Assembly (NCBI GenBank): GCA_040285855.1
Contig: JAUFOQ010000013.1
Location: forward strand, 1,798,001-1,862,000
Length of the DNA: 64,000 bases
Direction of reading: 5' to 3'
Origin: Eukaryota sp. GEM-RC1
Lineage: Eukaryota
Both the position numbers and the translations under genes were made by a program. Below are positions 32,586-61,135 of this stretch, piece by piece. The first letter of the stretch is position 1; each line of letters opens with the position of its first letter. Under the pieces are notes generated by a model, which searched no databases, had not been told where the DNA came from, and saw nothing but the letters and a program-made list of their open reading frames with translations.

Positions 32586-32948
32586 ATGTTCCTTTTACTG
32601 TGTTCCTTTTCTCTTTGGTATTTTCAGCTTTTTTTTGCATCTTCTCGGTTGCTGTTTAACGAAACTGTGTCATTGGTAAGACATTCTCGAACATAATACG
32701 AACATTTTGAGATTTAGAAGTCTGACTGGTTTGTGGAGTTTTTGATGTATTTATATAGTTGCATTTTAGAGCTATATGTGAACCCAATTTAATAGTGACC
32801 TTAAAAGACGTGTGTGTAAGTTTTTGTTACAGTTTTGTCCATAAAAACACGTCGTTGAGTTGGAAATGTGGGATGAAAGTTCGAAACATTTACCATCAGA
32901 TGGATCATCCAGAAAATTCAACTCAAAACTCATGAACTTTGTATCAAA

Positions 32949-34537
32949 ATGGGACGTCTAGAAAACTTCTATAGTGTTCATCTAACAACCTTTACTATAC
33001 TAGGTATCCTTGGAAGCTTCCTCATCTACTTTTCTGAAAAGGAATGGGACTTTGTTGACTCCTTTTTCATGTCCTTCTCATCAATCACTGATACCGGACT
33101 CACAACAACTTCTTTGGAGTCTGCCAAGTTTTCCACTCGTATTCTAGTTCTCTTCTTACTCCAACTAGGTAGTCCTGTTCTATGGACCTTGGTTCCAGTC
33201 GTTATCCGACGTCATTTCCTTATCAACAACTTCAACCATCCTGTTTGTACCGCTTCTAAGTATCCCGAGGAAGATCCCTCAGCCCCACCTATCCACCTCA
33301 ATCCAATTCCTCTCTACAAATACTCTAAAGAATATTGGGCTATGTCCCGCCTCATAGTAGTTGTTCTTGCCTACACTCTCTTCCTCTACCTGTTTGGCTT
33401 TCTCTGTCTGTCCCTTCGCTTTGCTCTCTCCCCCCATGCTAGGTACGTTGCTGATCAAGTGGGAGGGTGGAAGTTCTTTACGATCTTTCACGTAATTTCG
33501 GCCTCAACTAACTGTGGAATGTCACTCTTCTCTTCTTCACTTACCCCTTTTAGAGACGATCCTTTCATTTTGATCCCTTTAATGATTTTAATCGTCTTTG
33601 GTCAGACTGGATTCCCTGTTTTTCTTAGATTAATCATAATCAACAGGTCAAAAACGTCACGATATCGTCCTGTGTACACTTTCCTTCTTCATCATGGACG
33701 TTCAGTATATACTCATTTGTTTTCTACAGTGGAAACGTCATGGCTGGCGTTCTGGTGGTTGATTTTCTTTTTGTTCAATTTGGAGCTATTTTGATCTTTG
33801 ATTTTGACCACATGCCTGTTTCGAATCCTCTTTTGAACACGTTTTTCATGACAATCTCGACTAGAGTCACTGGATTCTCTACGATTGATCTATCACACGT
33901 CTCCCCACCACTTCTTATTATTTTAATTTTGTTACAAATTTTGGCGGTAACTCCTTTTATTTCTGTTCTTAGAAGTTCTGAAAAGACTGTAGAATCGTTA
34001 CCAGAACCAGGAGGCATCAAATCAGCCCTTCGGAAGTTGATCTCCACTCAACAGTTAAATACCTGGGCACGTGATTTCTTTTGGGTATATGCTTCTTGGT
34101 TAACTCTTACTATTATCATTTATAAGAGGTTAGATGGCTGGTTTTTGTTCAATCTTTTATACGAAGTTTCCTCTTCCTACGGTAACATTGGCTTAAGTAT
34201 GGGTTATCCAAGCACTGAGAGCTCATTTGCTTCTGAAACTGGAACATCAGGGAAGTTCGTGTTTTGCTTACTAATGTTGGCTGGTCGGCATCGTGGTTTA
34301 CCTTCGGTTCTTGATCAAAGTGCTTCTACTTTAACTTTTCAAGGGTTGGCTCAGAATGTTCTGAATTTGATACCTGTGGAAGTTTTAGCAAAGATGAATG
34401 TTAAGGAAGCTAAGAAAGTTGTAGCTAAACCTGATCCGGAATTAAATCCCTTATTAGAAGTTTTAATTGCAGATTGTGATGCCAACAATACCGTGACTTT
34501 GACTTCAAGTCACAGTTACTTAACCTTTCCCCCCTAA
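32949..34537 (+). CDS. Trk/HKT cation transporter (one frameshift)
   Basis: Pore-loop motifs S.ITDTGL, SASTNCGM, STRVTGF, SSYGNIGLS.GY and GRHRGLP; one extra T at 33768-33772 joins the two ORFs. Confidence 0.9.
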
Positions 34538-35738: not shown

Positions 35739-36321
35739 CACTAATCATGGTAATTAGTCTGTATTGGAAATTAGTCTCACATGGTAAATAGTCTCACTCA
35801 GACTAATTCTCATGTTGTAACACTTTAAACTGAAACTCGATTGGTAATTAGTCTCACTTTTTGTGATAAAATACCTATAAAATAGAACAACATTCGACGA
35901 ATACAAATACTGAACCACCTCGATATTACTTCTATTTTCCTATGAATAGCGTCTCCGCTGATGTTTGTGTTTACAAGTCAGGAAATTGAGTCAGGACGTC
36001 GTTTTTTCCAATAATGAGCTTGTTCGAGCACATCCTTTTGGTTGGTATACCCATCCTAATATGATTGTTGTGGAAGAAAATCAAGCAGACGTACCGAACG
36101 AAAGTTTTCCTGCTCTATTCATCAAAGTGAATGACAATTCATTTTTGTTTTGGTGGTGATACCAATTTCCAACAACGATAATTAGTCTGAGTGAGACTAT
36201 TTTTCTAACATGCTAATTAGTCTCACATGTTAATTAGTGTGTGTGAGACTAATTACCATGTGGATCCCTTGGACGATGACATATGAATTAGTCTGAGTGA
36301 GACTAATTACCATGATTAGTG
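35739..36321. mobile_element. Tc1/mariner-type MITE
   Basis: Perfect 22-bp TIR CACTAATCATGGTAATTAGTCT flanked by TA; subterminal TAGTCTCA repeats as in 5920-6426. Confidence 0.85.
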
Positions 36322-39584: not shown

Positions 39585-39764
39585 TGAGTCGACATTAATT
39601 GGAAAGAAATTCGACTGTGAATTTCATTCCGAATGCATAAGGGCATAACCCTTCACATTTTCATGATCTCATATAGAGCAAAACTCACAGTTTGACAAAT
39701 GTCTAAATTATTAGACAAATATCCTCATTCGCAAAGTCTTTTAAGACGAGCTAACTTCATAGAT
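39585..39764 (-). ncRNA. Candidate Fanzor omegaRNA (scaffold plus 3' guide)
   Basis: Immediately 3' of the Fanzor stop; hairpins at 39736-39747, 39700-39717 and 39639-39653, an 11-bp long-range stem 39680-39690/39615-39625, a possible pseudoknot 39726-39731/39630-39635, followed by a U5 run. Boundaries inferred. Confidence 0.55.
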
Positions 39765-42700
39765 TCAAGATTCCTGATCTTTCTGGTTTACGTGTGAGTC
39801 CTTGGGTACATCTTTCTTAGGCTTATTTGGACAAGTTGTTTTGTTATGTCCAGGTTGAAAACATATACCACACTTGTTAGGACCTCTGACAGTTGTTAGA
39901 GGACGCTTTGCTTTACCCTTACCCTTACTCACAGTCTTTTTCTTAGGAATCTGATCTGTATTCCCGCCATCCACGACAGGTGTTGTTTGAGATTTTGGTC
40001 TCTCGAGGATGGCAGGTCTACCTTGACCTTGAATGGTTCCATTTACAATATTATAAATATTGATAGCAGAATTGAAGTCTCTATTCCAGAGGACATGACA
40101 TTTAGCACATTCAACTAAGCCCCATGGTGAGACTTTTTTGCTCTTCAATCTTTCCTTCGATAATGGCAACTGTTTGGACCATTCATCATCAAAGTTACGC
40201 TCCACAATATTGTCTAATTGATTGTGTTCCATAATTTCCTTTTTTAATTCTTTCTCTTCCTTCTGTAACTTCTTCTTCCAATGAGGATCAGTGACTTTGA
40301 TCCCATCAGGATTGGAACAGATACCTTCGTCATTTCTGGAAACACATGCAGAGCAACATTTGCTGGTCTTAAATTCATCAACTAGGAACACTTTAAATCC
40401 AAATTTTCTTAATAATTTCCGAATTGAAGCACCTTTTACAGTAGATGCTTTACCTCTTCTTCGACGATAAGCAGTGTCGTTCCAGTCTCCATACCCAACA
40501 ACGACTTCATCTGAGTTTCCAAACTGGAGAGCAAATCTGTGAAGCATGTTTTTTCACTTCGTTCCTTTCTTGAATACTGTGTGAGACGATTCCGTCTAAA
40601 CCACTTTTCTTCGTAAATTCCTTCAGTATTTCTTTGATCAGTAGTGGGTGATCGTAATAAAGAACATGTAATTTCTTTGCCAAGAACAAAAGCAGAATAC
40701 TGAGTCAATTCACAAGATTTACTACCTGGCGAGTTAGAGCCCCATTGATCTAAAATTTGTTGCCCATTTATGTCAATGCGTCTGCCATCTGGACTGTGAA
40801 TAAATTGGGTAGAATATTGTTGTAACCGTTCGGATTCAGATAAACGGTGGAGATTATATCGTCTTATTTTCTTCTCCAGCTTCCTCTTCTTTCTCTTAGC
40901 TCTTTTTCTTTCCTTCCTTGTTTTTTCTTTTCCATGGAGACTTTTTAATATCGGCATTGCGCTCCCCAGCAGTGTATCTGAATACTTTCCAATCATCACG
41001 ATTTTTCAACTTGACAGTTGATGGTTTGTCAATAGTGGGTGCATCTTTCCAATCCTTCAATTCCTTTTTTAATTTTTTCAAGCTTCCTTTTTTCTTTGAT
41101 GATTTTGGAGAAATCTTTCTTCTTCTGAGATTGGCTGACGTATCGAAACCTTCGATTTCCTTTTCCTCCTTAGATTTTAAAGAAGCACAGTACATCAAAT
41201 CATGCTGATTAGGGTCAATAGCAACAATTCTTTTGGATTTCAACTTTAAGTTTTGAATTTCTGTGGAACTCAAAGAATCAATGTACCTTTCAGTAGCTGT
41301 GTAGTCAACTGCTTTCACCTTCTTATGAGGATTTCCTCTCCCATCAAGCAGATCTTTCCGCATCATCATTAAACTACAGCTAACTCCATCTGTGGAAATA
41401 GAACTGTATTTGAAGTCATGAGACAATGACTTTGGAAGACACTTTGGTTTCAAAACTGAGTGCCAAATGTCTTTTCGCACGTCATCATAGCTACCTTTAA
41501 TTTCTGATGCATAAACTTCTTTAAACCATGTAGTATCCAATCTGATATGATTAGGAATCAATGATTTTGTCAGAGGAAAAGGATTATTGGCAGTAACACC
41601 AGTACAAGAGTCTTCAACAAGACGTTTCAAATACACTGCATGACTTAAGAATTTCAAAGGATCTACTTTTTCAGCATAATAGATTGTTTTTTCCATTTTA
41701 CCTTCAAAAAAAGTAAACAAATAGTTAAAAAATAGTAAACTCAGTCTAGAATTGGGATCAGGAAACACTTCAACGTCTTAAATTAATTTTTGAAATTTTC
41801 CCATTAATGATCAACTGTCTGACTTCATTAAGCTTTGTACACAACTCTTGTCGTTGATTCTTATCAGTAAGCTTGTCAAGTCTATCTTTTTCAGGGTAAG
41901 CAAATTAAATACTTGAAAAACATGTTCGTGAAAGTGTTCACTCATGTTATTCTTGTAATTTGTAATAATTTCTGTTCCCATGTAATGCAATATACGAGAT
42001 AAACGATGACTACTGGGAAACACAATCCTATCAAGTCCAACAGATCGAGCAGCTAGTTCTAAACGAGGAATGTAATGAAACAATAAGTGTTGAGCAAACT
42101 GATTTTGAGTTGAGCCATCATTTGTGTTAGAAATTATGTTTGTTAACGACTCTTGTACAGTCTCAATATGATTCTGATTGTATACAAGTTTGTAGTCCCT
42201 AATCGTCATCATAGACAACACTTGTTCCATTGATTTCAACGTAAAAAAATTCTTCCAGTCTGGCAATTCAATTTTGGAAGTTTGAATTTTAGTCCAAAGG
42301 TCAGGTTCAGGTTCACCACTCGCATCTTCAATATTTTCTAATTTAACGGGAGGAGCAGTAGCATCGATAGACTCTGAATGTACATCTGTTTCTTCTTCAG
42401 TTGACTCATCTGTATCAGAATTCATTTCTTCCGTAACAGTTACATTTGGAACAGTAGCAGGCAGTAACTTCTGAATGTAACCTAAAATACCTGAATGGTG
42501 AAAATTATGAACAAAAAAATGTTTCAAAAAGAGAGTACTACGGACTCTTACTTGATGAGCTCTCTTAACACGAGATTCAATCATCCTAACCTTGGATTTC
42601 ATGATAACATTGTCCAGTCGTTTCTTAACCACTTTCATTGGTGACTTTGAACGTAATGTTTGCTTTTTGGGATCCAATAGGTCAGCCAACAAGTATTCAA

Positions 42701-45220
42701 TCAGAGGTAATTGTTGAATTGAGTTCATCAACAATAGCAGTCTTGTCGATTCCTTGGCCCAAAGTTCATTTACTTTCTCCAAATTTTTGACAAATTTCTT
42801 TTTAATCTTATCGACCTTCACTTTGGGATTGTCTGGAACTAAAACATTAATGCTGTCAATTATGCCATGCAAGTTTTGGACATTATTGACCAACTGAACT
42901 TCATCAAGATCAGAATCATGATTAAGTTCTTCCAAGCGTTTGACGGTTTCATTTTTAGAAAAAATATTTCATTTCAAGGAAAATTTGAACAACATTTTCC
43001 AAAAAACGGCCACCAGTAAAGACATAAAAATTCTTCAGTACAGCATTCAAATCGAGACTAAAAAACGGACCAAAAGTTGTTTCCTTACACCATTTGTTGA
43101 ACCAAAAGGGAATGTAGGGTTTAAATTCTGGAAAAGTAAACGTTGTATTGATTTTGAAGACTTGACAACGTGATGCAAGAAAGGGAAATGTATCTAAGTG
43201 AAAGTCATAACTCACAAACAATCGTGGACAATGTTGAGTAATGAAGGAAATGAAGTTTTTAAGCATACTGGATTCACTGTTTGAAATATGTAAGGTACAT
43301 AAATCCAAATTTGTAGTCTCAAAATTGCCATGGGAAAATAAGTGTTTTTCACTAAGGTCATTGTGATCAATGATCTGGATGGAAATTGATACAATCGGAT
43401 CAACAGAAGAATCACGTTTAACTTCTAATTGATCTTCAGCTTCACCTTCAACAGTTTCAATGTCATCATCATCTTCTTGAACAAGTTGAACATTTCTGCC
43501 ATTAATTCTTTCTTTTTTGGCAAAATCACTTTGAACATGAATTAAACAAAAAGTTGGTAGATTGTTCCAAAGTAGAGGGGATTTAAGAAAGTCTTGAATT
43601 TGTATTTCTTGTTCGATAGGCTCAGTGTGTAGATTTACTTCCATTTTATGAATTTCTTCTTGAATTGGCGATGGATACGACATAATGGAGGCCTGTGATT
43701 TGGGTGGTAGTTCAGATGGTGGTAATTCAGATGGCGATGGTAGTTCAGATGGTAGTACTTCAGATGATTCCAATGTGGACATACGGCGGTGAGTCTTTCG
43801 TATTGGAGTGTCACCAGTTGAAAAAAGGGAGCTGGTAGATCTAAATTTATTTCGTTTAATTAAGGGTGAACCTCGTGGTGATGGAACATCTGAAATTTTG
43901 GCTTTACTTTTTTTAGTGCTTAAACCAGTAGATGTTTTAGTGCTAGCAAGACGTGAACCTGTGAGAGGAATTGAAGTGGTTGGATGTTCTTTACCGGCAG
44001 GAGGTTGAATGGGTAACGATGGTACAATAGGAGCTACTGTGGTTTGACGTTGTTGTAGATAAAGTGTCCTTTGTTGAGACAAGACCTCCAGAATTTCTTC
44101 ACGAAATATGTCTGCTTGAAGTTCACTGTTCACTTGGATCAAATAAGTTTCCAAATACATCAGAGACGGAACATAGGCGAATCCTTTAAAAAGTTCAACA
44201 TATTTTTGAATATACGCAATGACATAAACTCCACAGTCGTTAGCAGACTGTCTTTTGGTCACAGGCACATAACGGAAAACATACCCCCATGGCACAAGTA
44301 CTTCGGATAATATGTCGACAGCTGGTTTTACCATAGACTTACTCATATCTTCGCTAGTTAACATTGGATCAATGAAGATCCATTCCTTCTCACAACAGTC
44401 TATAATGGCTAAACCCCAATGACAACCAGTGACACCTTCTCTGGAATAATTAGCATTTCTAGTCATCGTATCACTAAGGGGAACAAAGAGGTATTTGGAG
44501 TTTGTGATTTGATTTTTCTCAATTTTCGTCAACAACCATTGATCTAGCCGAAGAAGGGCATCTGGTGAAACAATATATTGAAGCAATGTGGTCGGATGGA
44601 TAAACATGCTTTCAAAGTCTAACTCTGCTTCTTGAAATATCACTTTACAGTACTCCACTATCGCTTCGTCATCAACCCATTGATTAGGATAAACTGAGTT
44701 TATGGCTTCTTGAGTTACGGGTCCTGGATTGGATTCAATATCACCATCAGCGGTGAGGTCTTTCGGGAACGGAGGATGGGAAGGGATAAACAGGGCAGAC
44801 GAGTACTTCATGGCAACAAATGTATGTGTTGATAAAACACAGAATGAACTGTCCTTATCTAAACTCAACTGAACCCAAAACCGTGCAATGGAGTCAGTCT
44901 CGAGTTGAGTAAGATAAGGACAGGATGGCGGCATCATCGAAGCAGCAGCAGTGGAGGGAGAAGCAACGGCAGTCATCACAGCAACGGCAGCGGAGGGAGA
45001 AGCAACAGCAGCGGAGGGAGAAGCAACAGCAGCGGAGGGAGAAGCAACGGCAGTCATCACAGCAACGGCAGTGGAGGGAGAAGCAACAGCAGTGGAGGGA
45101 AGAACTGTCCTTATCTAAACTCAACTGAGCCCGAAACCGTGCAATGGAGTCAGTCTCGAGTTGAGTAAGATAAGGACAGGATGGCGGACAACATCTGTTT
45201 GGATGTAGAACAAACGACAT
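39765..45220 (-). CDS. 2A - Ulp1/SENP8-like protease - PolB-exonuclease-like - Fanzor polyprotein (~1,800 aa; frameshifted in this assembly)
   Basis: Fanzor motifs T.YKNN..HF, FPL..S.IP.HIRLDT, STDGVSCS, RuvC-I AIDPN, YGDW, RuvC-II VDEFKTSKCCSAC, CAKC, RuvC-III WNRDFNSAINI. Protease W.DDE.I..Y, HWGL, FIDP, Q..NDCGVYV. 2A DIESNPGP. Pieces join by small indels at ~45100, 42959-42964, 41887-41891, ~41778, 40921-40926 and 40549-40554. Confidence 0.8.
44719..44760 (-). other. 2A-like StopGo peptide DLTADGDIESNPG/P
   Basis: Exact match to the D(V/I)ExNPG-P consensus, located directly before the protease domain. Confidence 0.85.
44845..45188 (-). repeat. Duplicated ~85-bp unit flanking 21-bp (AVASPSA) tandem repeats in the polyprotein leader
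   Basis: GAACTGTCCTTATCTAAACTCAACTGA...GATAAGGACAGGATGGCGG at ~44845-44931 and ~45102-45187; GGAGGGAGAAGCAAC repeats between. Confidence 0.9.
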
Positions 45221-45299: not shown

Positions 45300-46258
45300 C
45301 ATAGCTGTCAAATACAAGTAACACCTGTTCTAAAAATACAAAAATACAAAAATACAAAAATACACATGCAAATACAAAAATACAAGTACTGTAATAAAAA
45401 ATGATTTAATAAGACACACTTTACTAAAAACACCAACACATGAAGTTGAATGTATGTCGATAAGCAAACACATGAAACATGGGATTATTAATAATGCTGA
45501 TACTACTTTCGAAAGTGATTCTTCCTCTTCTTGGAACACTACATTTCCATCTTGTACATTGTGCACTAGTCACAGCAACACTTAGTCTCACTTGAACTAT
45601 TTTACATTTCACGATGCTAGCCTCCAAACAGTTTAAAATGAAGTAAAACATAAATCAGTCCCGGTGAAAAGAATTTTCCACTGAAACTATTGATTGTGAC
45701 CAATGCAGTAACCAAGGATACCTGGTTTAACTTGTTATTCTGGTCGGAGAACAAGTAGACGAGGTGCATAGTTTAGGTGAATGATGTTCTATAATGACAT
45801 GTGGTAATGTATTGATAATCGCAACGATAATCACAACAACTGAATCACAAGTGTAAACTCCTCAAAAACGCCTATACTGCTATCTGATTGACTCCAAGTA
45901 CCAACAAAGACAGTTTGAGTTTGGCAAAATCAAAATTGAAAAAGATCAAAAGACAAAATCTCGATTAGTAGACGTAATTCTTATAAGTATACGAAACACT
46001 TGAAAAACAAAGTCTGGACAAAGTACCCACAACTGTTTCATTTACTATTACAAAGAAGTTTCGTATGTTTGGCTATCACCTTCAGAGTGACAAAGAACGA
46101 TAGTCAACCACTTTCTGTCAAAAAATACAAAAATACAAAAATACAAAAAAGCACATTGTTTAGACACGCTTGTATTTTACAAAAATACAAAAATACAGTG
46201 AAAATACAAAAATACAGTGAAAATACAAAAATACACTAATTTGTATTTTTCAGCTATG
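45300..46258 (-). mobile_element. Non-autonomous hAT element
   Basis: 8-bp TSD TTTAAAAG (45292-45299, 46259-46266); TIR CATAGCTG..AAATACAA; subterminal AAAATACA arrays; relic LSKVVSALLIIP...STSCVGVFSKVCLIKS resembling the hAT C-terminal dimerisation domain. Confidence 0.88.
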
Positions 46259-46559
46259 TTTAAAAGGAAATCTGTAATAAAGTCTATACCAGAATTTCCC
46301 ATGTCCTACTCAATCTTCAAACTCAGAAATACTTCTGAACAAGAAAGTCGTTCCCGTACCATCAAAACATATATGAAACTTGTTGTAAAGCTTGCTGATA
46401 AGCATGCAGTTAACTTGTCACTTGTTCTTCTTCCTTATGGAACATACAATTCTAAATCCATCCACATAACGGAAGTGTCAACATCTGACTTACCAGATGA
46501 TCTTAAAAAGGGTACCATGGATTTTTGTCTCAACCACAAATGAAGAAAACTACTCTAAC

Positions 46560-47110
46560 ATGTCTTCTTCTCCAATGAAGAGTAGCCGATCATGCAATGA
46601 TACTGTTTCAGTTGGTCACGTTATTGGTTATAAGAAGATCCCCTCTTCTACAACATCCTCTTCAAATTCTAGCTCTGATGTATCATATGCGTCATGCTCT
46701 CCTGCCCTTTCTTCCATCAACTCACTTGCGATTTCAACAATCCTTGTTGACTTTAATCCATCTTCGTTCTCTGAGTCGTTTGTTAGTACCATCTCTTGAA
46801 TGGAATCATATTAGGCATCCTAGTGTTCTCCTCACTTTAAAGAATGATATACCTGCGTTCTTTAAGAAACTTGGCTGGGTGAGTCACTATTTCTTTGAAT
46901 CTGCTCTTCTTGCAGTCAAGGTCTTTCTTCAAACAAACACGTTTCATATCATTCCTAAAGATCTTCCTCAACTATGTTCATTGACTTCTTTCTTTGGAGC
47001 AGAGGTTAAGTCTGTTTTCTTTCATATATCTGGATCGTTAACTGTTGATGAACTTTTCAATATTCCACCATAATTTCAGGATTGGAATTGCAATTGAATA
47101 CCAAATTCAC
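46560..47110 (+). pseudogene. Truncated LRR-family paralogue (N-terminal domain only)
   Basis: LRFQQSLL...IPAFFKKLGWVSHYFFESALLAVKVF.QTNTFH; frameshifted, no LRRs follow. Confidence 0.75.
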
Positions 47111-47668
47111 TTGGTCTTCAGACAGATTTTGAAAACAATTTGAACAATACTCATAGTATTTCCATGCAGACAGAAACAAAGGTTCTTACAATTGTCTACA
47201 ATATTGTACCACTGCACTGGAAGCAAAATGATACAACATAAAACAGTCTTTCAAATATGAAATTGAAACTGCAATTGTTAAAAGATTTAAATTTAATAAT
47301 GGCCAAAATTTTGAGTTTTCATTTGAATGATAGGGACAAGTACTTTAATGTGTTGTCGTTGACCAATACTTTTGTTGTGTCGATACTAGATTTAAATGAT
47401 GAATTGGTTTGTGATGAACAATGTTTAGGAATATTGGAGGAATTTCGTGAAGTGATGTGTGAATATTGTTGTGGGATTGGATATAAGGAGTCGTTTTCGT
47501 TGGCTGTGATGTTTGCGAGGGTGATGGGGGATATAGTAGTGCTAGTTAAGTTTGATAAACTGAAGTTGTATATTTTAATGGTTGTTTTTATCGACATTAT
47601 ATATAGAAGAAAACATTATGAGCAACAACAATTCAATACACATACGACACGTTGATTGAGATTGATTC

Positions 47669-47963
47669 TCACCAAATGTTGTAGTTACAAATGTTGTCAT
47701 TACAAATGTTGTATCACCAAATGTTGTAGTTACAAATGTTGTATCACCAAATGTTGTATCACCAAATGTTGTAGTTACAAATGTTGTCATTACAAATGTT
47801 GTCATTACAAATATTGTCATTACAAATGTTGTATCACCAAATGTTGTCATTACAAATATTGTCATTACAAATGTTGTATCACCAAATGTTGTCATTACAA
47901 ATATTGTCATTACAAATGTTGTATCACCAAATGTTGTCATTACAAATGTTGTATCACCAATGT
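47669..47963. repeat. 15-bp minisatellite (~19 units)
   Basis: Variants ACAAATGTTGTCATT, CCAAATGTTGTAGTT, ACAAATGTTGTATCA in tandem. Confidence 0.92.
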
Positions 47964-48621
47964 CGTTGACCTTAGTCTCATTCCAGATAGCATCTTGACG
48001 AAGTTGTTGAAATTCTTCGCCATCTAGAAGAAGGTCCCAGTTTGTTAAAGTAAAGGGCATGTATTGAGGTGCAATTATTTATGTGCAGGCAATTCAGAAT
48101 TTGATCTGACTCCTATAAATACAACTGCAATTGGTCAGTTTGGTACATTGTACTGTCAACAAACACATCTTAGCTTCCTGTAGATGATAATGAGTTACCT
48201 CAGTCTGATTTCATTATCGTGTTTTGAGTTGCTATACAAAAATGCAGTCAAAAACGACTGAAGACACAGCAGTGTATTACACGATCAGAGTTGTAGCAAA
48301 CCAGCAGAGTTGTAGCAAACCTTAGTGTTTTCCTTTGGAGGATAAGATGTCAATGTGATGTATGTGTAGTAGGATGGTTGTACAACGTTGAATTTATTCA
48401 TGACATGGTTGAACACGGTTCACAATTCTAAGAACGAATACCTGCAAACACGTCTCTATCTTGAAAGAAGCTCAACACTTGATATCAAAAGATGTATGGA
48501 ATCCATAAAGAAATTCGAGTTTATTCAGATGATAACAACTCTAAAAAGGAGAAAAAAGACACAAAGAAACAAAGTGTCCATCCTCAATATCTATACAATG
48601 GGAAGAAGAATGTGTGAATAA

Positions 48622-49105: not shown

Positions 49106-50640
49106 CAGTGTTTGAAAACCACCCGGTGCCACTCACCACCCGGGTGGCGTCTGGGTGGTACTGGGTGGATAATTTTGGTCTTACCATCATCTTCAATCCA
49201 TGACTTCCTGAATACATACTTCGTTGTTCAACGTGTCCTGAATACAATTATTTTAACGGGAGTTATTTTTAGGATCGGAGAGGCTAATATCATCTTACTT
49301 ATTTATTTTTCAGAGGGTTTTTCTAATCCCAAACCTAAACAAAGTACTTCATTGTTAGTTATTTTATATCACACACTGCTGCTCGGTTTCCCTTGGATGG
49401 AATCAATCTGTTGAATTCCAGTAATTGCCGTTGGATTCAATCTGCTAAAGATTTGGTATCATCATTGTCTCCTGAAATGTGGGAATCTTTGTTCCCTGCT
49501 CATTTGAAGGAGATTCCTTTAAAAAATATTTCATCTATACCGTCTGCTGTATGTAAGCTGCAAAATAAATTGACAAAGAGTTTGAACTCTTGGACTTTAA
49601 TAATCGTATTAGCTTGGCTAAAACTAATAGTCCCGAGTTCGCTGCTTTTTTAATTGATCTTTGTAATAGTGGACCTTCTGGATTTATTTCTCAAATTTCA
49701 AAGGTGTATGGTTTACATCTATCTGATGAAGCTTGGATGATCAATATGCGTCTTCGTTTGGCTATTTGGCCTGCAAATTTATTAAACTATTCAACTTGCT
49801 CTTGTGGAGCTAATGGTGTTTTTCGTCATTTAATTAATTGTCGTTATTTTATTCATCTACGTGCAATAATTCATGATGGTGTACGTGATTCTTGTTATTC
49901 CATGTTTAAAGCACATGGTTTTCACTCTAAAGTTGAACCAGTTTTGAATCATCTTTCAGATAATGAATTTACTGATGAAAAAGAGGGGATCTACATACTC
50001 CGTGGCTTAAATCGAGTCAATCATTAATGGATTTTACTACAGTGGATGTATGTAACAAATCTTGTGTTAGTAGGATTTTAGATTCTTCTTTTAACCCGTT
50101 AACAGCTGCTGAAAAGCTCAAACACTCCAAGTATGACTCTCAAGTTGAAGAATTAAATAGAAACTCATATTCCAAATTTGTGTTTCAACCTTTTGCTGTT
50201 TCTCTTTTTGGATCTATTAGTCCTGCTGGTGATCAATTTTTCAAGGATTTCGAAGAATTGTGTAAAGAAAAGAAGCGTAAGTTTAGAATGGCTGAATGGA
50301 AAAACCGTATTGTGTTTTCCATATATCGGAATATGCCTTTCTATTTCTCTAGATTAATTGAGAAATTGTAGAAGTTTGGTGTGAAGGTTAATGTTGATAA
50401 ACGTAATCTTTTACCGGGTGGTGATGAAGTCGTTTGGATTTAATCTTAGTATTATTTGTTTGTTTTTACAATTTCATAGTTTGTAGGAAGGTTACTTTAT
50501 TGGGTGCCGAATAAATTTCACTGCTAAAGTACTTTCAGTTTCATTGTATATGGTGTATAAAGTAGTTTTTGCACCAAAACTAATGTCTCGTACTTTATTG
50601 CCACCCGGGTGGCGTCCGAGTGGAAAATTTTCGAACACTG
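49106..50640. mobile_element. Non-autonomous hAT element carrying a nested CRE fragment
   Basis: 8-bp TSD TTGAAAAG (49098-49105, 50641-50648); TIR CAGTGTT(T/C)GAAAA; subterminal CCACCCGGGTGG palindromes at both ends. Confidence 0.9.
49381..50518 (+). mobile_element. 5'-truncated CRE-like element, family B
   Basis: W.INMRLRL..WP, CSCG...HLINC, IHDGVRD, MDFTTVDVCN, FVFQPFAVSLFGSI; possible TSD CACTGCT (49374-49380, 50519-50525). Confidence 0.85.
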
Positions 50641-51237: not shown

Positions 51238-51500
51238 GTTTATTCGGCACCCAATAAGGTAACCTTCCTACAAACTATGAAATTGTAAAAACAAACAAAT
51301 AATAATAAGATTAAATCCAAACGACTTCATCACCACCCGGTAAAAGATTACGTTTATCAACATTAACCTTCACACCAAACTTGTACAATTTCTCAATTAA
51401 TCTAGAGAAATAGAAAGGCATATTCCGATATATGGAAAACACTATACGGTTTTTCCATTCAGCCATTCTAAACTTACGCTTCTTAAATAATAATAAATAA
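51238..51500 (-). mobile_element. CRE-like family B 3' fragment
   Basis: Reverse complement of ~50270-50515; 11-bp TSD AGTAATATAAT (51227-51237, 51501-51511). Confidence 0.85.
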
Positions 51501-51935: not shown

Positions 51936-54900
51936 CTAATTTTCAGAAAAAGTGAAAGAGCACAGAGGACAACGTCTACTATCACTCGCTTCGAACCATT
52001 TCTCAAGACATTTGGTATGCATTTTGTTCTTACAATTAAGACAGGATCTATTGGGCAGACTTCCATTTTCGTAGAAACAAACAGAATAACAAATAGAACA
52101 CATATCAGCGGAATCAAGATTCTCGACACACTTGGAAAGTACGATAATTGCAGAAATGACAGCAAATCTAGAATTATTTAAATATCCCAATTCTTCAGAA
52201 TTCAATCCAGAAACTTCTTCTTTCAAATCAGAAATGGATCCATGAATCTTCACAGCAGAATTAAGTAATAGCGACCATTTTCTAATTTCAGCTCTAGTAG
52301 AGTTCAAATCACAAGCAAACGTGACCTTACACGGACGTAAAGGGAAATCGTCAGGATAAGAGAAGAGGAATCGTCCAGAGTTCACAGATTCACCCTTCCT
52401 TTCAACTATTAGCTCAATTGAATGACCTGGGAGAGTGGAAAGTTTAAAGACAACATTGGGAGCTTTAATCAAGTGAATTACTGGAACAAGACCTATAAAC
52501 TGAGATTCTTGCTGGAAAAAATGTGTCGAGAACGAAGCTGAAAACACACGTGAAAGATATTTAAAATATTTAGGCAATTTGTTGACATACGATCGGAATT
52601 CCTGTAGATGTGAATGAATAACTTCTTCTAAAAGGAGAAGATATGCAAAGTTCGATGATTCCTGTAACAAAACAGGAGAATTAAACTCTAACAAAGGAGC
52701 AAACACTTCAAGTAGAGAAAAAATAATTTCTAAATTTTTTGAATCCAATACTTTAAGATTTTGGGATTGTTCAATTTTTGAATCAATTTTGTCGACAATA
52801 AGAGAAGAGCTTTGGAGTCAGAATCTATTTCAAAAGAATAATCAAAATCAAAAACTTTTTGGGAGGCTGCAAACTTAGCAAAGGAAATTTCAAATTCAGA
52901 AAACAGAAACTTTGAAGAAAATAATCTCCCTGAAATTAAAACAAATGATGACGGGAAAAATCTAGCAAGACTGGAAATATTCTTGACTGACGAACAATCT
53001 GCATCAATTTTCAATTTTTGGAGATAATTGGAAAAAACAATGTCAAAATCACTTGCAATTTGTTTGGTACCAGCAATAGCACTGACGTGACCAATGACGT
53101 CAGCAATGAGACTAATCAAAACAGGAAATATGTAGGAATCAAAAGTGATTGCTTCACTGAAACAATTAGAAAATAACTTCAAAACAATGAAACATTTAAA
53201 ATATGTCAAATCACTAACATCAATCGTTTCCAAGAAGAGTCGCAGAGATTTAAAACTAACATTTTCGTTTGCAAAAATGACTTTAAGCTGATCAAATGTA
53301 GACCATAAATTTAAATTTTGTTGATTCCAGCTACTTAAGCCAATAATTGACGATCCTGCTTTAAAACCGTCATGGTCACTTTTTAAACTATTAAAATTTT
53401 CAATATTATACATTTTGGAAAAACAGAACTGTAAAATTTTGAATTGGTGAGGCAGTAAAACAGAATTGGAAGAATCAGTGTTTTGATTGAAACTTTGATT
53501 GGCAAATACAAATGAGTGCACTAAATAGAACATAAAAGAATCAATATTGGTACGATCTAATACACTGTTTAGTTGCAAATTGAAATCCTCACATGGTTTG
53601 GCTTGAATTAAGTGAAGAATATGGGTTCCGAAAACAGTCAAAAAGCAATCAAAGAGCTCTTCTAGATTGACAAAAGGGAAGGACTGTCATTTTGATTGAT
53701 GAATAAAGCTAAGCCAATGTGACGGCTGAGATTTGATGAATCCAATGCAAATAGGAATGGTTTTGATTCAAATGAAAACAATAGCAGCAGGTCTTTCAAA
53801 AAGAATAAAGCCTGGTCGGAGATATTTGATTGACAATCTGAGAAGGAGGATACGAATTGGTTAATGAAATAACTGGCATCATTAACAGCAATCAGTTTTG
53901 ATTGATTGTCTAACAATGAGTCAAATTGAGGACCATAATCAGTACTGAGAATTTTAAAAAGTAGGAAAATGAAAAAATCAATCGTCTGATTGTCAAACTG
54001 ATTAATTTCATTACAATTGAGAAGAGAATTTAATATTTTGAAATATTTCGAAGGCCAACAACAGGTGTGGTGAGATTTCATTAAAACAATATAATCTGTG
54101 CAGACCGGAGGTAAATCGACATAAACCAAAAATTCTTCACAAGCAAGTACGTCATCATCAGTCAGCAAGTGGTCAAGAACACGTTTACAGAAATCAGAAT
54201 CCAGGAAATCAAAATTTAAACCCCGAATTAAATGAATTCTAGCAACTTTTAAATTAGAAAACAATGAAGCTATGTCCGAAAAATCATAGAAAGATTGTAA
54301 AAATCCTAATACAAATTTAAAATTTAGAGAATCAACAGATTCATTTGCAAAAAGTCGTTTAATAATTATTAAAAATTCTACTGACTGTTCCGAAGGCAAG
54401 GAATTAAATTCAGCATATTTAGCACTGATTTCATAGAAATTTGGTAACAAGAATGAATCAAAACAGAGCTCAGAAAACAAAAAAAGAGTTACCATACTTA
54501 CTTCATGAATATTTAAAAATGAATATTTCAAAAATGAACAAAATATAGCAGGGAATTGATTATAAAACTTTGAATTTTGGTGTGAGTCGTTCAAAAATTG
54601 TAAAAGAGCGCTACACAATTGAAATCCAAAACATCTTGAGCTAAAACATCAAACTCCAAATGACTTTCAAAAAACATGGAAAAATAATTTAACATTAAAT
54701 TATCAAAATCATCAGGAGAGGATTTCACTCCAATAACAATTAGAGAATCCTTAAAAGAATTGTACAAATCAATCACATTGGACCGTGATTTAACAGCGGT
54801 TATTTGTTGAAATTTTTTCAAAATATATTCAGACCACAGAAGAACTCCATGGAGAACTTGTTCCTTATAATTTGAATTATTCCAGAATTTTTTAAAAAGA

Positions 54901-55876
54901 GAGGAATTAGTTCACATGCTGTATCATCAAAAGCATCATTTTTAATAAATTCCAGGATTTTTGTAAAAACTTCGGAAGTTAATCCTCCCGGTAAGACCAA
55001 TAAGCAAGCTAATACTTCAGTAAACAAAGAATCCCTTGCTAGAAGATTTAAAAGTTTAGAAATTAACTTTTTGATGAACTTATCAACTGTTAAGTCCTGC
55101 CTCAACAGAAAATTCCAAAATTCCTGTGACATTATCAATTTAAATACAGAAAGTCGTAAATATTGGGGCATTGCGTGACCAATCAGTTTAAGTAATCCTG
55201 ATTGACTACCGGGATCAATCAGTTTTTCAATCAAATCCAATAACTGCCAACTATTTGAGTTTAGACATTCTTCTTCAGAAACACGTATAACCCAATTAAA
55301 CAGACCAACACCCATGTTTAAGGAAATAGCTACTATTTCAAAGGATTGTTCTTGAGACCATCCGTCGTTGAGAAGAGCAACGGAGGACTTTGAAAGGCAA
55401 GTGTTTAGGAAAGATTGAAAGTGTGAAAAGAAAGAGCTAAGTAGACGATCAGGGTGCTTGAAAAGGGAGGAGAAAGAAGATGACGAAATTCTGGCGACTT
55501 CACTTGACGGGTCAAAACTCAGGCCAACCCAAGGAGCAATGAAAAGAGGAAGAGCTGGTTTCAAATGTTGTTTGGGAAAGCGAGAGACTTGTTGGAGTAA
55601 CCGAGCAGTGTTGAGTCTAACACGGCTATTTGGGTCATGAACAAGGTGAGGAAGAACATTCTGAAGAGCCAAACAGAACGTCGACAGTAGTGAGGGTTCT
55701 AGAGAAGGTATCTCTTGACAAAGAGTCGTCAGAGCCTTTGCCCTAGTGATTTCACATCTTTTCTTAAGTTTTTGAAGAGGAACAGATATAGTTAGCGGGA
55801 GGTCGTCCGTAACAAGAGCAGAGTTTTGGAAGAACTGTGTTCCAGTAAGTAATGCAGCAGCATCTGATAGTTTCAT
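51936..55876 (-). CDS. LTN1: Listerin/Ltn1 RQC E3 ubiquitin ligase (four frameshifts)
   Basis: N-terminal L.KLKKR..ITR.KAL..L, L..DPNSRVR, PW....FDP..EVA; C-terminal RWD-like YP.DFPL and RING CSICYSV....GSLP...C..CKNK.H..CL.KWF..S....CPLC. Confidence 0.9.
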
Positions 55877-56456
55877 TGACAAAGATGGTGATAAAAGTAA
55901 AAGAATTTCTCATTCGGCAAAAACAGAAGCAGCTTCAAAAACTATACAAGCATACCCTCTACTATGCTTGTATTGGAACCTGCTTGTATTAGCGTCCATT
56001 ATATTTGTAAGATACTAATGGCAAGAACATCATCATTGTATTTCCATAATCCCAACCAATGTAAGAGTTTATTTGCAACAATTAATTAATACATACTAAT
56101 CCCAACCAGTAATCATTAAATTGCCCTGTCGATCATGAAAACCATTAAAAGCGAACCAAAATATGTGACAATCACTTGATCAAACAAGTTGTTCATTAAT
56201 CTCCTAACTGAACCAGTTCTAGGTAGGGAGTTCTCACAGTAGTTCTACCCTACTGTGAGAACAAACATAATACTGTGAGAACTAACGATTACGTTAGTTT
56301 AACAGTGTTGTAGCATGACGGCCTTAACTGCCATGAAAGATCAGAGATCAATCAGAACATGACCATAATTTAACTTCAAAAGAAGAGAACTGATAATTAA
56401 TATAATTTATTCAAAGATTAAAAAGAATCAGAATAAAACAAAACTAAATACTGTAT

Positions 56457-58382: not shown

Positions 58383-59028
58383 TCACGACTTTCCTCTTCC
58401 CCTGAGTAAAGAGCCTCTATTAAGACTTGGTTTCGATGGTAACGATGTGTTCTTCGAATGACCAGTTGTGTCAGCAAAGGGGTCTAAAGAAAGGGGTGCA
58501 GCGGGAGTAGTAGCATTGTGGGGGGCATTGGGGGAAGGCACACTGGTGACGTTGCTGGTGAACTTAACTGGTTCAGGGGGGCTTCCATACGGATTTTATA
58601 TGGTCTTTATCATATACTGAATTGCCCATGGCAGACCCAAAGTATCGAAGAGATCGTTTAACACCATCAGTAATAGCTTCTTTCTTAGCTAGACTGATCG
58701 CTGCTCCTTTACTACGCTGGGCATCGCCAGTTCCGTATCCAATATCCTCATGATAGTTACCAGACTTTAAAGAGACTCGAATAAGAGCCGAAACTCCACA
58801 CGAAAAGCGATTGTTGTTTTCCTCCAGATAGTCAACCTCAACAGACTTAACTTCTGTACTCCACCCGTCAAAACCAAAGATCTCATTGGCTTTTCGTACA
58901 ACTTTCCATCCTTCGAGATAAGTAAGAGAAGATCCGCCAGGACCTGGTCGTTTAGAAAGATCACTGGCAGTCAGATTTTCTGAAAGAGCAGAAGATATAG
59001 CCTCATAGTTAACCCATGAAGAAGTCAT
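58383..59028 (-). CDS. RAD52: Rad52 recombination mediator
   Basis: S.RPGPGG..LTYLEGW.V...ANEIFGFDGWS, LKSGNYHEDIGYG, AKKEAITDG.KR.LR.FG..MGN.VYDK; removing one base from G6 58576-58581 extends a low-complexity tail (end uncertain). Confidence 0.93.
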
Positions 59029-59064
59029 GAGCAATAAAGTTGTCAATTTTGTTTCGGTTCTGCA

Positions 59065-61135
59065 ATGAACCTAACAGATGAACAAGCTTCTGTCATTCAA
59101 TCTACTGACAATCCTCTATTCGTGAATGCTCTTGCAGGAACTGGAAAAACCGAAACATTATGTCAAACACTCATATATCATCTTTCTCACCACCCTTCTG
59201 CTTCCTTTCTTGTTCTTACTTTCACTAAGTCTGCCAGATCAGAACTGCAAAACCGTATATCTGTGTTACTCCAAAATCATGGATTAATCCAACACATGAA
59301 TCAATTTTCCATCACTACATACCATTCTCTGGCTCTGTTACATGTAAGATCTGAGTTTCCAAATTTTAAATTTTCTCTCCTGAGCACATCAGAATCTTTG
59401 GATCTTCTTTGTGACTGCTTTGATACCGCCATTGATAAACTAGAAGTCACAGATGCTGATATTGAGGTAACTGTGGCTTTGATTTGGAAAGTATATACTT
59501 TGGGTTCAGCCAAATTATTAAAATTTCTAACAATTTCTCGAGAAGTTGACAGTTTTCTGAATTCTTTGAATTTTGACACTTGTGCAAAAATTTGATTTTT
59601 AACACATTGAATTATTATCAGCACTTCAAATCACAAAACTATCTCCTGGATTTCGCTGACCTCTTGTTTGCGTGGCTCGAAATTTTAAAATCTCAATTAA
59701 GTTTGAATTCTAAACAGTCTTCAAATAATTTAAATTATTCAGTTATTGCGGGAGATGAAATCAATGACTCATCAGAATTACAATTACGCATACTCTCCCA
59801 TTTGTACAAAATCTATAATTTTCCAAGATTGTTTATTGTTGGTGATTGGAATCAGTCAATAATGTCTTTTTGTGGTGCAGACTTTCAGAATCAACTTTTA
59901 TTTTCTGATGTTTTCCCTCAACTGACCACATTGTACCTCACTGTCAACTTTCGCAGTTCTCCACCTGTTGTGAAGTTAGCCAATTCTATACTCACAAAAT
60001 TTAAAATTTTCAATAATTCGTCTAGTCCTCAACTTATCCCTTGCTATGTCAACAACGAACGGTCATTTCCACCGCCTTCGTTGGTTCTTCTCTTTGGGGA
60101 AGTTAGGGAAGCTTTGTTTGTGGCAGAAAAAATTAACAAGATTAAACAACGGTCTTCAGTTGTAAGTAACATTGGCGTTTTGTTCAGAGTTTCTCGTCAC
60201 TCTTGGATTTTAGAACTTGTGTTTAATCTCTATGGGATTTTCTACAACAAAATAAGTGGCCAGCAGTTTAAAGATACGGCGTGTGGGCTCTTCCTTTCAT
60301 CATTAATTGTTCTTTTGGATTTTTTTGAGAATTCAGTTTCATCGTTAATTGTTCAAAACTTTCAGTTGTTTACTGTTGAAAGCTCCTGGCAAATTTTAAT
60401 TTCTCATATTCCCAAACTTTCCGAAGATAAAAAAACTTGTCTTTTGAATAGACTTCGAGCATCACGGTGGATTCCTTCAATTGACAACAAAACCATTGAT
60501 GATGATCTACTTGTTTATATGAAGTGTTTTTCAAAAGTGAAACGCCAATGCTCTCAGAAAGTTCATTTTTCAAAAACATTTGTACTTTTTTTAAATATCT
60601 GTCACAAGTTGAAACTGAAGATTTGTTGTCAAAATTGTACTCTTTTTCTAATTTTTCAGCCATAATATCAAGGTTTCCATCTGCTTTTGAGTTGTATATT
60701 AAACTGAATCAGGTCGAGTTCAACATGTCTACCATTTCTGAAGATGATAAGGTAACTCTTTCTACAATTCACTCTAGCAAAGGACTTGGTTTTTCAACTG
60801 TTTTTTTGACTGGACTTGTTAATGGAAAGTTTCCGCTTATTTCCACAAAATTCAATCACATTACAGTTGATTTGGATGAAGAGCTCCGATTGTTTTATGT
60901 TGCCGTCACTAGAGCTAAAGTTTCTCTTATTTGCACTGTACCTTTGTCTGCTGATTATTGTCTTTCTTCATTTATTGATGAAATGATATTCCAAAATTTT
61001 AAATTTGTACCTCCAGCTAATTCGACTGAAATTATTAATATCACTAAGAGTATTGAGACTCATCTTTTGGATCCTAATAATCCATCCCTATTACTGAAAT
61101 TGAGAGACCTCGTGCAATTGAAAAGAAGCAATTAA
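59065..61135 (+). CDS. UvrD/PcrA/Srs2-family SF1 helicase (two frameshifts)
   Basis: A.AGTGKT, LTFT.SA..EL..RI, TYHSL, DE.ND, VGD.NQSI..F.GA, L..NFRS, STIHSSKGL.F, EE.RLFYVAVTRAK; junctions at A5 59586-59590 and T5 60527-60531. Confidence 0.9.

Follow-up and report, generated by a model that had tools for sequence, protein, structure and literature searches.

The window, a stretch of 64,000 nucleotides from Eukaryota sp. GEM-RC1, carries on its minus strand a 2A (StopGo) motif of the viral kind immediately ahead of a Ulp1-like protease, which is followed by pieces of a Fanzor1 nuclease. This arrangement raises the question of whether the motif is a genuine 2A peptide and, if so, what it would do for the enzyme behind it. 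A first-pass annotation had placed the motif exactly at the protease N-terminus (44719..44760) and had proposed that it releases a protease-Fanzor protein of ~1,650 residues from a leader of ~165 residues. The site is as follows.

44719..44769, minus strand: 2A/StopGo peptide, F-P-K followed by DLTADG (upstream motif 4) and DIESNPG/P, from the sequence, a chance estimate and conservation.

Read directly, positions 44760-44719 encode DLTADG-DIESNPG/P, with the predicted skip point between Gly (44724-44722) and Pro (44721-44719), the Pro codon beginning at 44721. The stop-to-stop frame around it (45114-42955) is 719 codons long, with the motif at codons 118-132, and DIESNPG/P agrees with the core (D/G/C/N)(V/I)ExNPG/P in an open frame. 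NPGP occurs only once across all six frames of the 64-kb window, in which 2.8e-5 occurrences of the strict core D[VI]ExNPGP would be expected by chance.

The residues upstream of the core were assigned to a published class. StopGo motif 4 is WV(R/K)DLTx[acidic]G, coupled to Asp at p12 and Ser at p15, and an assayed example had almost 100% activity (Li et al. 2026, PMC12846837). The window site fits this motif: it shares with motif 4 and with class A 2A peptides the core, the hexapeptide, Asp p12, Ser p15 and the Lys before DLT (K-DLTADG), but has Phe-Pro in place of Trp-Val and belongs to a DNA element in the nucleus of a protist rather than to an RNA virus. Some of the viral 2As retrieved here have Phe at the Trp register or Pro after that register. 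The viral dataset of PMC12846837 contains 24 instances of FPKDLT, the two rows displayed being of motif 1. The identical 14-mer is peptide A10495 of Rao et al. (2025, PMC12338488), of unclassified origin, predicted, and untested in that list; in the same work, Trp-to-Phe in class B peptides caused a 2.3-fold mean loss, with 5 of 7 peptides active and 2 of 7 without detectable activity. A canonical core is insufficient for activity, because several canonical CR1 2As show little or none (PMC3708506), and highly active 2As were reported in only 43 of 580 retroelement contigs, 56% being mid-range (preprint 10.64898/2026.09.24.754024). Judged from its sequence, the window 2A is highly likely to support some skipping.

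The frame downstream of the motif contains three regions.

44077..44721, minus strand: Ulp1/C48 (NEDP1/SENP8-like) protease domain, from Pfam, alignment A1, AlphaFold2 and Foldseek.
43560..44076 (limits approximate), minus strand: Ser/Pro/Thr-rich linker with basic patches, from the sequence.
42958..43560, minus strand: DNA polymerase B exonuclease-like domain (Pfam core 43434-43141), from Pfam and the atlas.

The 2A-bearing frame matched Peptidase_C48 in Pfam (E 1.7e-5), and His 44421, Asp 44370, Gln 44250 and Cys 44235 were invariant in alignment A1; we take these to be the His-Asp-Cys plus Gln catalytic set of the Ulp1/C48 family. In the AlphaFold2 model (10-row alignment, pTM 0.81), the mean pLDDT was 34, 35 and 42 over the 30 residues up to Gly, and rose to 88-95 in blocks from Pro, with the first helix at +4. 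Because the pLDDT jumps at Pro, and the fold and catalytic residues are those of C48, the predicted protease fold begins at the skip-site Pro, in line with the earlier claim that an Ulp1-like fold starts within a few residues. With a canonical core, so low a chance expectation and a fold from Pro, the placement of a 2A at the protease N-terminus was borne out. Stand-alone relatives begin 12-17 residues ahead of the point equivalent to Pro. The top structural match in Foldseek was the NEDD8 protease NEDP1 (E 3e-8), and at 19% identity this likeness does not fix the substrate as SUMO, NEDD8 or ubiquitin. Many family members have two tandem Ulp1 domains (P0006, P0058, P0078, P0093, P0100); in the P0006-type second domain, HWG is retained and the Cys motif looks altered.

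The exonuclease-like domain, which lies between the protease and Fanzor1, was absent from the first-pass annotation. It matched DNA_pol_B_exo1 in Pfam (E 3.4e-7), and the atlas agreed for both Peptidase_C48 and DNA_pol_B_exo1; we found no report in the literature of a PolB-exonuclease-like domain fused into Fanzor1. By eye its acidic set seems incomplete, the first and third acidic motifs looking altered, and the domain may be inactive. FTGG at its end was considered as a self-cleavage site and rejected, as it is lost in the sister subfamily.

Absence of NPGP from homologues had been named beforehand as one observation that would speak against the motif; instead, all 48 scorable first protease domains proved to be 2A-like. 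We gathered 104 proteins by word-index searches, a full HMMER search and cluster look-ups, and omitted nine from the family counts: three stand-alone Fanzors, P0065, P0067, P0069 and P0072, and two cluster mates. The four named proteins, two of them named viral, were rejected as family members, as they resembled it through repeated 2As only. A 2A-like site was present in 48 of the 95 non-viral proteins, the window's own counted (44 canonical, 4 non-canonical), and these 48 comprise every first protease domain whose N-end is present. No 2A was found in the internal protease copies (0 of 12, two of them classed as internal from homology and upstream sequence) or in the stand-alone SENP8-like relatives of 211-226 aa (0 of 5). 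The 2A-bearing proteases form seven classes with a mutual identity of 23-41% and are scattered through the whole family clade in a tree of 27 rows, in which the stand-alone proteins stand apart at 100/99 support.

Sixteen distinct 17-mers were observed among these sites. L, T, D, E, S and N are invariant, and 14 of the 17-mers have Phe at the Trp register. The free positions vary, the x of DLTxDG being A, M, I or T and another position P, K, Q, V, L or A. The essential residues are fixed and the free ones variable, which is the pattern expected from selection on the peptide. Nine representatives taken from the first 28 scorable proteins gave 24 pairs in which both the leader and the protease class differ; in these pairs, the 16 residues leading up to the skip point were 88% identical, as against 24% for the ten residues that follow Pro and 14% for positions -30 to -21.

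All family members with a name displayed are from Eukaryota sp. GEM-RC1, a free-living metamonad (PMC11316075), nine proteins from the HMMER search being counted by sequence alone. Since the name-checked members all bear one organism label, the copies are not independent, and gene conversion may inflate the conservation of the 2A. The queries included the 2A, which biased the searches toward short 2A-bearing matches; the HMMER search still returned proteases without it. Metagenome matches were rejected, the two loci among 150 candidate stretches being antisense repeats in a phage tape-measure gene. Viral contigs gave no match to the Fanzor query, and the five loci of 30 candidates found there with alignment A1 were likewise rejected, as they share the 2A motif only, without a protease.

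These data also bear on the reading of the motif as a relic, weak or without activity, that arrived with a borrowed leader and is kept alike as a stretch of DNA where copies recombine. Leaders and proteases do recombine at the 2A, one identical 17-mer occupies 24 of the 48 sites, and canonical but inactive 2As exist (PMC3708506). A relic is nevertheless very improbable, given that, in proteases as divergent as those above, substitutions fall where viral motif 4 is itself variable and leave the essential residues untouched, and that internal protease copies are without the motif.

We then considered what lies upstream of the skip point, where the following features were identified.

44722..45220, minus strand: leader ORF of ~166 codons from ATG 45220, frame-broken near 45100, from homologues and the disordered end of the model.
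44846..44931, minus strand: 86-nt hairpin, 2A-proximal copy (RNA fold z -6.0; no Rfam match).
45102..45187, minus strand: 86-nt hairpin, upstream copy, 98% identical (RNA fold z -7.6).
44939..45100, minus strand: spacer built from tandem repeats of 21 and 18 nt (periods of 21, 39 and 81, each a multiple of three).

The proposed leader of ~165 residues agrees in length with the 166 codons from ATG 45220, but this ATG is out of frame with the 2A in the window as written. Five homologues begin at the ATG equivalent to 45220 and run in frame into the 2A. Other ATGs in the leader frame are at 45057, 44976, 44937, 44934 and 44811; a 30-residue leader from Met 44811 is possible, but was rejected as the sole start, as homologues use upstream in-frame starts too. 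The duplicated hairpin, which is very stable, was absent from the first-pass annotation. The leader hairpins had no match in Rfam (E up to 5; three chance-level matches fell elsewhere), which ruled against a known self-cleaving ribozyme. In homologues, leaders of types A and B contain a unit related to the 86-nt hairpin in up to ~eight repeats.

Among the 48 proteins, the predicted leaders are 10-336 aa long (median 115), and 23 contain tandem repeats. By short motifs they were grouped into ten types, which are not all independent because types A and B are related. The same leader type is paired with several protease classes: B with I, II and III; C with I, II, III and V; D with II and III; F with II and V; and H with VI and VII. 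The exchange point between leaders and protease classes is the 2A region. Such swapping at the 2A is as expected if the leaders are nucleic-acid modules with a disposable peptide; that they keep the frame is suggestive only, because gene models display in-frame leaders only. The earlier proposal that the enzyme is independent of whichever leader precedes it is supported by this mixing of about ten leader types with seven protease classes.

The hydropathy of the leaders near the 2A was also compared (peak over 15 residues). It reached 1.27-2.5 in 7 of the 10 types, at least 1.75 in six, and was low in the window's type A (0.9) and in types F and I (0.7-0.8). A hydrophobic leader could imply that partial skipping serves two destinations, the unskipped protein entering the secretory route and the skipped one staying inside, for which the 2A-like signal sequences of sea urchin provide a precedent (PMC4981915). 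This use is extremely improbable here, considering the low peaks of types A, F and I, the organisation of the leaders as long repeat arrays, and a secreted nuclease fusion for which no use is evident.

Taken as a whole, the sequence data point to the probable reading that the 2A frees a uniform protease-exonuclease-Fanzor protein from a variable leader, whichever leader or start codon is upstream. Translation would start at one of several leader ATGs, the leader would be released at the 2A Gly, and the ribosome would continue from Pro. The resulting protease, joined to the exonuclease-like domain and to Fanzor1, would begin close to where a stand-alone SENP8-like enzyme begins. The leader, though translated, would matter as nucleic acid, through its hairpin and repeat modules, perhaps as promoter or end signals. 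The protease might remove SUMO/NEDD8-type tags to aid the element, either at the cut site or against silencing.

It is quite unlikely that the 2A acts mainly as a brake, with many ribosomes halting at Gly and thereby limiting nuclease and protease. Such a role was proposed for the N-terminal 2As of L1Tc and other LINEs or non-LTR retrotransposons (PMC3708506), a nuclease is presumably costly to its host, and a brake fits all the conservation data. Alone, however, it would explain neither why the site coincides with the start of the fold in every class nor why leaders are swapped there, and it is compatible with leader release rather than exclusive of it.

The extent of the protein released by the 2A depends on the Fanzor1 part, for which three features were recorded.

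39990..42638, minus strand: Fanzor1 nuclease split over four further frame pieces (RuvC-I Asp 41216; Glu 40376 within DEFKTS; C4 zinc finger; RD 40082).
39831..39872, minus strand: CCHC zinc knuckle, C-terminal in the Fanzor ORF (C-x2-C-x4-H-x4-C; Pfam zf-CCHC_2, E 0.044).
39620..39764, minus strand: candidate omega RNA (guide) scaffold, weak, positioned from Fanzor biology.

The last Fanzor piece matched the solved SpuFz1 (E 2.4e-6), as did the sister protein P0045 (E 1.8e-10). All parts of the published Fanzor1 motif, D-x(125,275)-[TS]-[TS]-xx-C4 finger-x(5,50)-RD (PMC3627910), are in order across the breaks, with a D-to-TS spacing of 283 codons versus the published 125-275. A 645-aa stand-alone Fanzor matched the window pieces in order, the match of frame piece 41005-40436 being weak (E 0.14). 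The Fanzor ORF stops at 39765, and the region behind it, in this one copy, had a fold z of -2.3 (4 of 200 shuffles equally good) and no Rfam match. For protease classes III-VII, a downstream Fanzor is putative.

As written, the 2A-carrying frame ends at 42955 (719 aa stop to stop), and the window copy has frame breaks near 42965, 41890, 41785, 40900 and 40550. The size of ~1,650 aa proposed earlier stood as a length, 4957 nt or 1652 codons from Pro to the Fanzor stop, but is counted across these five breaks. The break at 42965 is bridged by 23 proteins that read from the exonuclease into Fanzor, while two others besides the window's own end there; those at 41890 and 41785 are bridged by 10 proteins of the sister subfamily. 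No homologue reads across the two breaks toward the RuvC end, at 40900 and 40550, and no retrieved protein covers the 2A through RuvC-III. Within the window's subfamily, P0010, P0012, P0016 and P0019 stop exactly at the window's stop, after about 970 residues, and the sister proteins P0036, P0041, P0042, P0044 and P0045 stop together right behind RuvC-I. Several protease classes terminate without Fanzor in their gene models.

Each of the five breaks, unlike that in the leader, falls within or next to a run of 5-6 A or T. The host genes for TrkH (32877-34537), a listerin-like protein (51936-55909) and UvrD (59038-61135) are also frame-broken: in each, a single Pfam profile or protein can be followed from one overlapping frame into the next. 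The assembly of the relatives was made from Nanopore reads corrected with Illumina (PMC11316075). We prefer sequence error as the cause of the window breaks because of the A/T runs, the likewise broken host genes and the Nanopore-based assembly, and we infer that the 2A-headed product would be one chain of about 1,650 residues. The A-run breaks shared across copies could reflect systematic sequence error or a programmed frameshift, and the splits in the three host genes could be a sign of residual indel errors or of unrecognised small introns.

A shorter product, which concerns what is made rather than whether skipping occurs, seems somewhat unlikely: the 2A would then head only a protease, or a protease-exonuclease-partial Fanzor, and the nuclease end would be separate, frameshifted or dead in the subfamily. 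Consistent with it are the stops at A-runs common to four and five proteins, the two unbridged breaks and the protease classes that end without Fanzor; real frameshifts at the subfamily break would give a product of about 970 residues. It is opposed by the 10 sister proteins that read through the shared break, by the A/T runs at every break but the leader's together with the alike broken TrkH, UvrD and listerin-like genes, and by the ordered match to the stand-alone Fanzor.

The family is likely mobile, as inferred from its copy number and Fanzor content. Of the features that mark TIR DNA transposons of the Mutator, Ginger and Mariner types, neither terminal inverted repeats (TIRs) nor a target duplication was found above chance in the window copy, where the best end-to-end matches of 14-15 nt were within those of shuffles. 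Pfam found no transposase family in the ORFs scanned at the locus. Apart from RNA-virus matches, neither the ORFs of the element nor the 38 homologues that were scanned matched a reverse transcriptase (RT) or APE family. Regarding Helitron2 features, 5' hairpins are present, and a RepHel protein was not found at the locus. The ORFs at 46202-47655 were rejected as the element's transposase, as they matched no family and 46840-47025 matched three LRR host genes in the window.

Among known systems, the closest published layout is that of MCi-2 of Mucor, an unclassified Fanzor1 family in which an exchangeable 5' part lies on a common 3' part (PMC3627910). It likewise has a Fanzor1 nuclease and no recognisable TIRs, but the account of MCi-2 given there mentions no 2A, protease or exonuclease fusion and gives target duplications of 11-12 bp, versus none found here in one copy. 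APE-type non-LTR retrotransposons (L1Tc, Ingi, CR1, L2, Rex1) resemble the family in having a 2A near the start of the long ORF, in some cases directly before the first enzyme domain, and in copies that vary in sequence (PMC3708506, PMC3894237). They differ in that their leaders have about 40-80 aa as compared with 10-336 aa here, and the window family has Ulp1-exonuclease-Fanzor1 downstream without reverse transcriptase or APE. Ulp1 domains are also found in Ginger1 and Mutator transposons, as a mobile-element C48 protease that in Ginger1 is fused to the nuclease protein, and were proposed to have a role in transposition in Ginger and Mutator (PMC2836005). There the domain is C-terminal to the DDE transposase, whereas here it is N-terminal, behind the 2A, often doubled, and by fold nearest NEDP1/SENP8.

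A bolder model would describe the family as LINE- or RNA-virus-like, with interchangeable 5' tandem-hairpin modules plugged via the 2A into a polyprotein that equips the RNA-guided Fanzor1 nuclease with a de-SUMO/de-NEDD8 protease and an exonuclease-like domain; the family, without TIRs or a transposase, would spread by homing or an RNA intermediate. We regard this model as unlikely. One review notes that Fanzors are not known from any retrotransposon (PMC13565253).

The neighbouring genes are those of a eukaryotic host, with V-ATPase H below the element and a clathrin-adaptor small chain above it (Pfam). Several other features of the window were observed. The ORF pieces 49569-50515 and 51239-51484 contain HD and PD-like motifs without a Pfam match, presumably recalling a restriction-like retrotransposon endonuclease, and a 246-nt inverted duplicate (98%) was noted with them. 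A 15-nt unit is repeated about 19 to 25 times at 47628-48002, where several frames are open. Clustered copies of TAATTAGTCTCA-like motifs in both orientations occur at 35746-36314 and 45582 and are possibly a promoter element. Upstream of the leader, the TACAAAAA repeat forms clusters at 45329-45385 and 46110-46240, which might belong to a promoter or to the left end. At 58573-61135, a Rad52/Rad22 gene and a UvrD-family helicase gene are arranged head to head.

In the literature, we found no description of a 2A from a Fanzor element or from any other DNA transposon, and no natural protease fusion to Fanzor in the main text of PMC3627910, PMC10711439, PMC10530073, PMC10432273 or PMC13565253. 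Natural 2As have been described mostly in RNA viruses and retroelements, and the reason for the frequent position of eukaryotic 2As near the start of an ORF was stated to be unclear (PMC12338488). The family presents a natural test, in which about ten leaders and seven proteases meet at a single constant joint where the fold begins. With it, the range of StopGo would come to include a Fanzor-bearing element and the metamonads. If the 2A is active, it shows how a mobile element can exchange its 5' control modules while its enzyme is left undisturbed.
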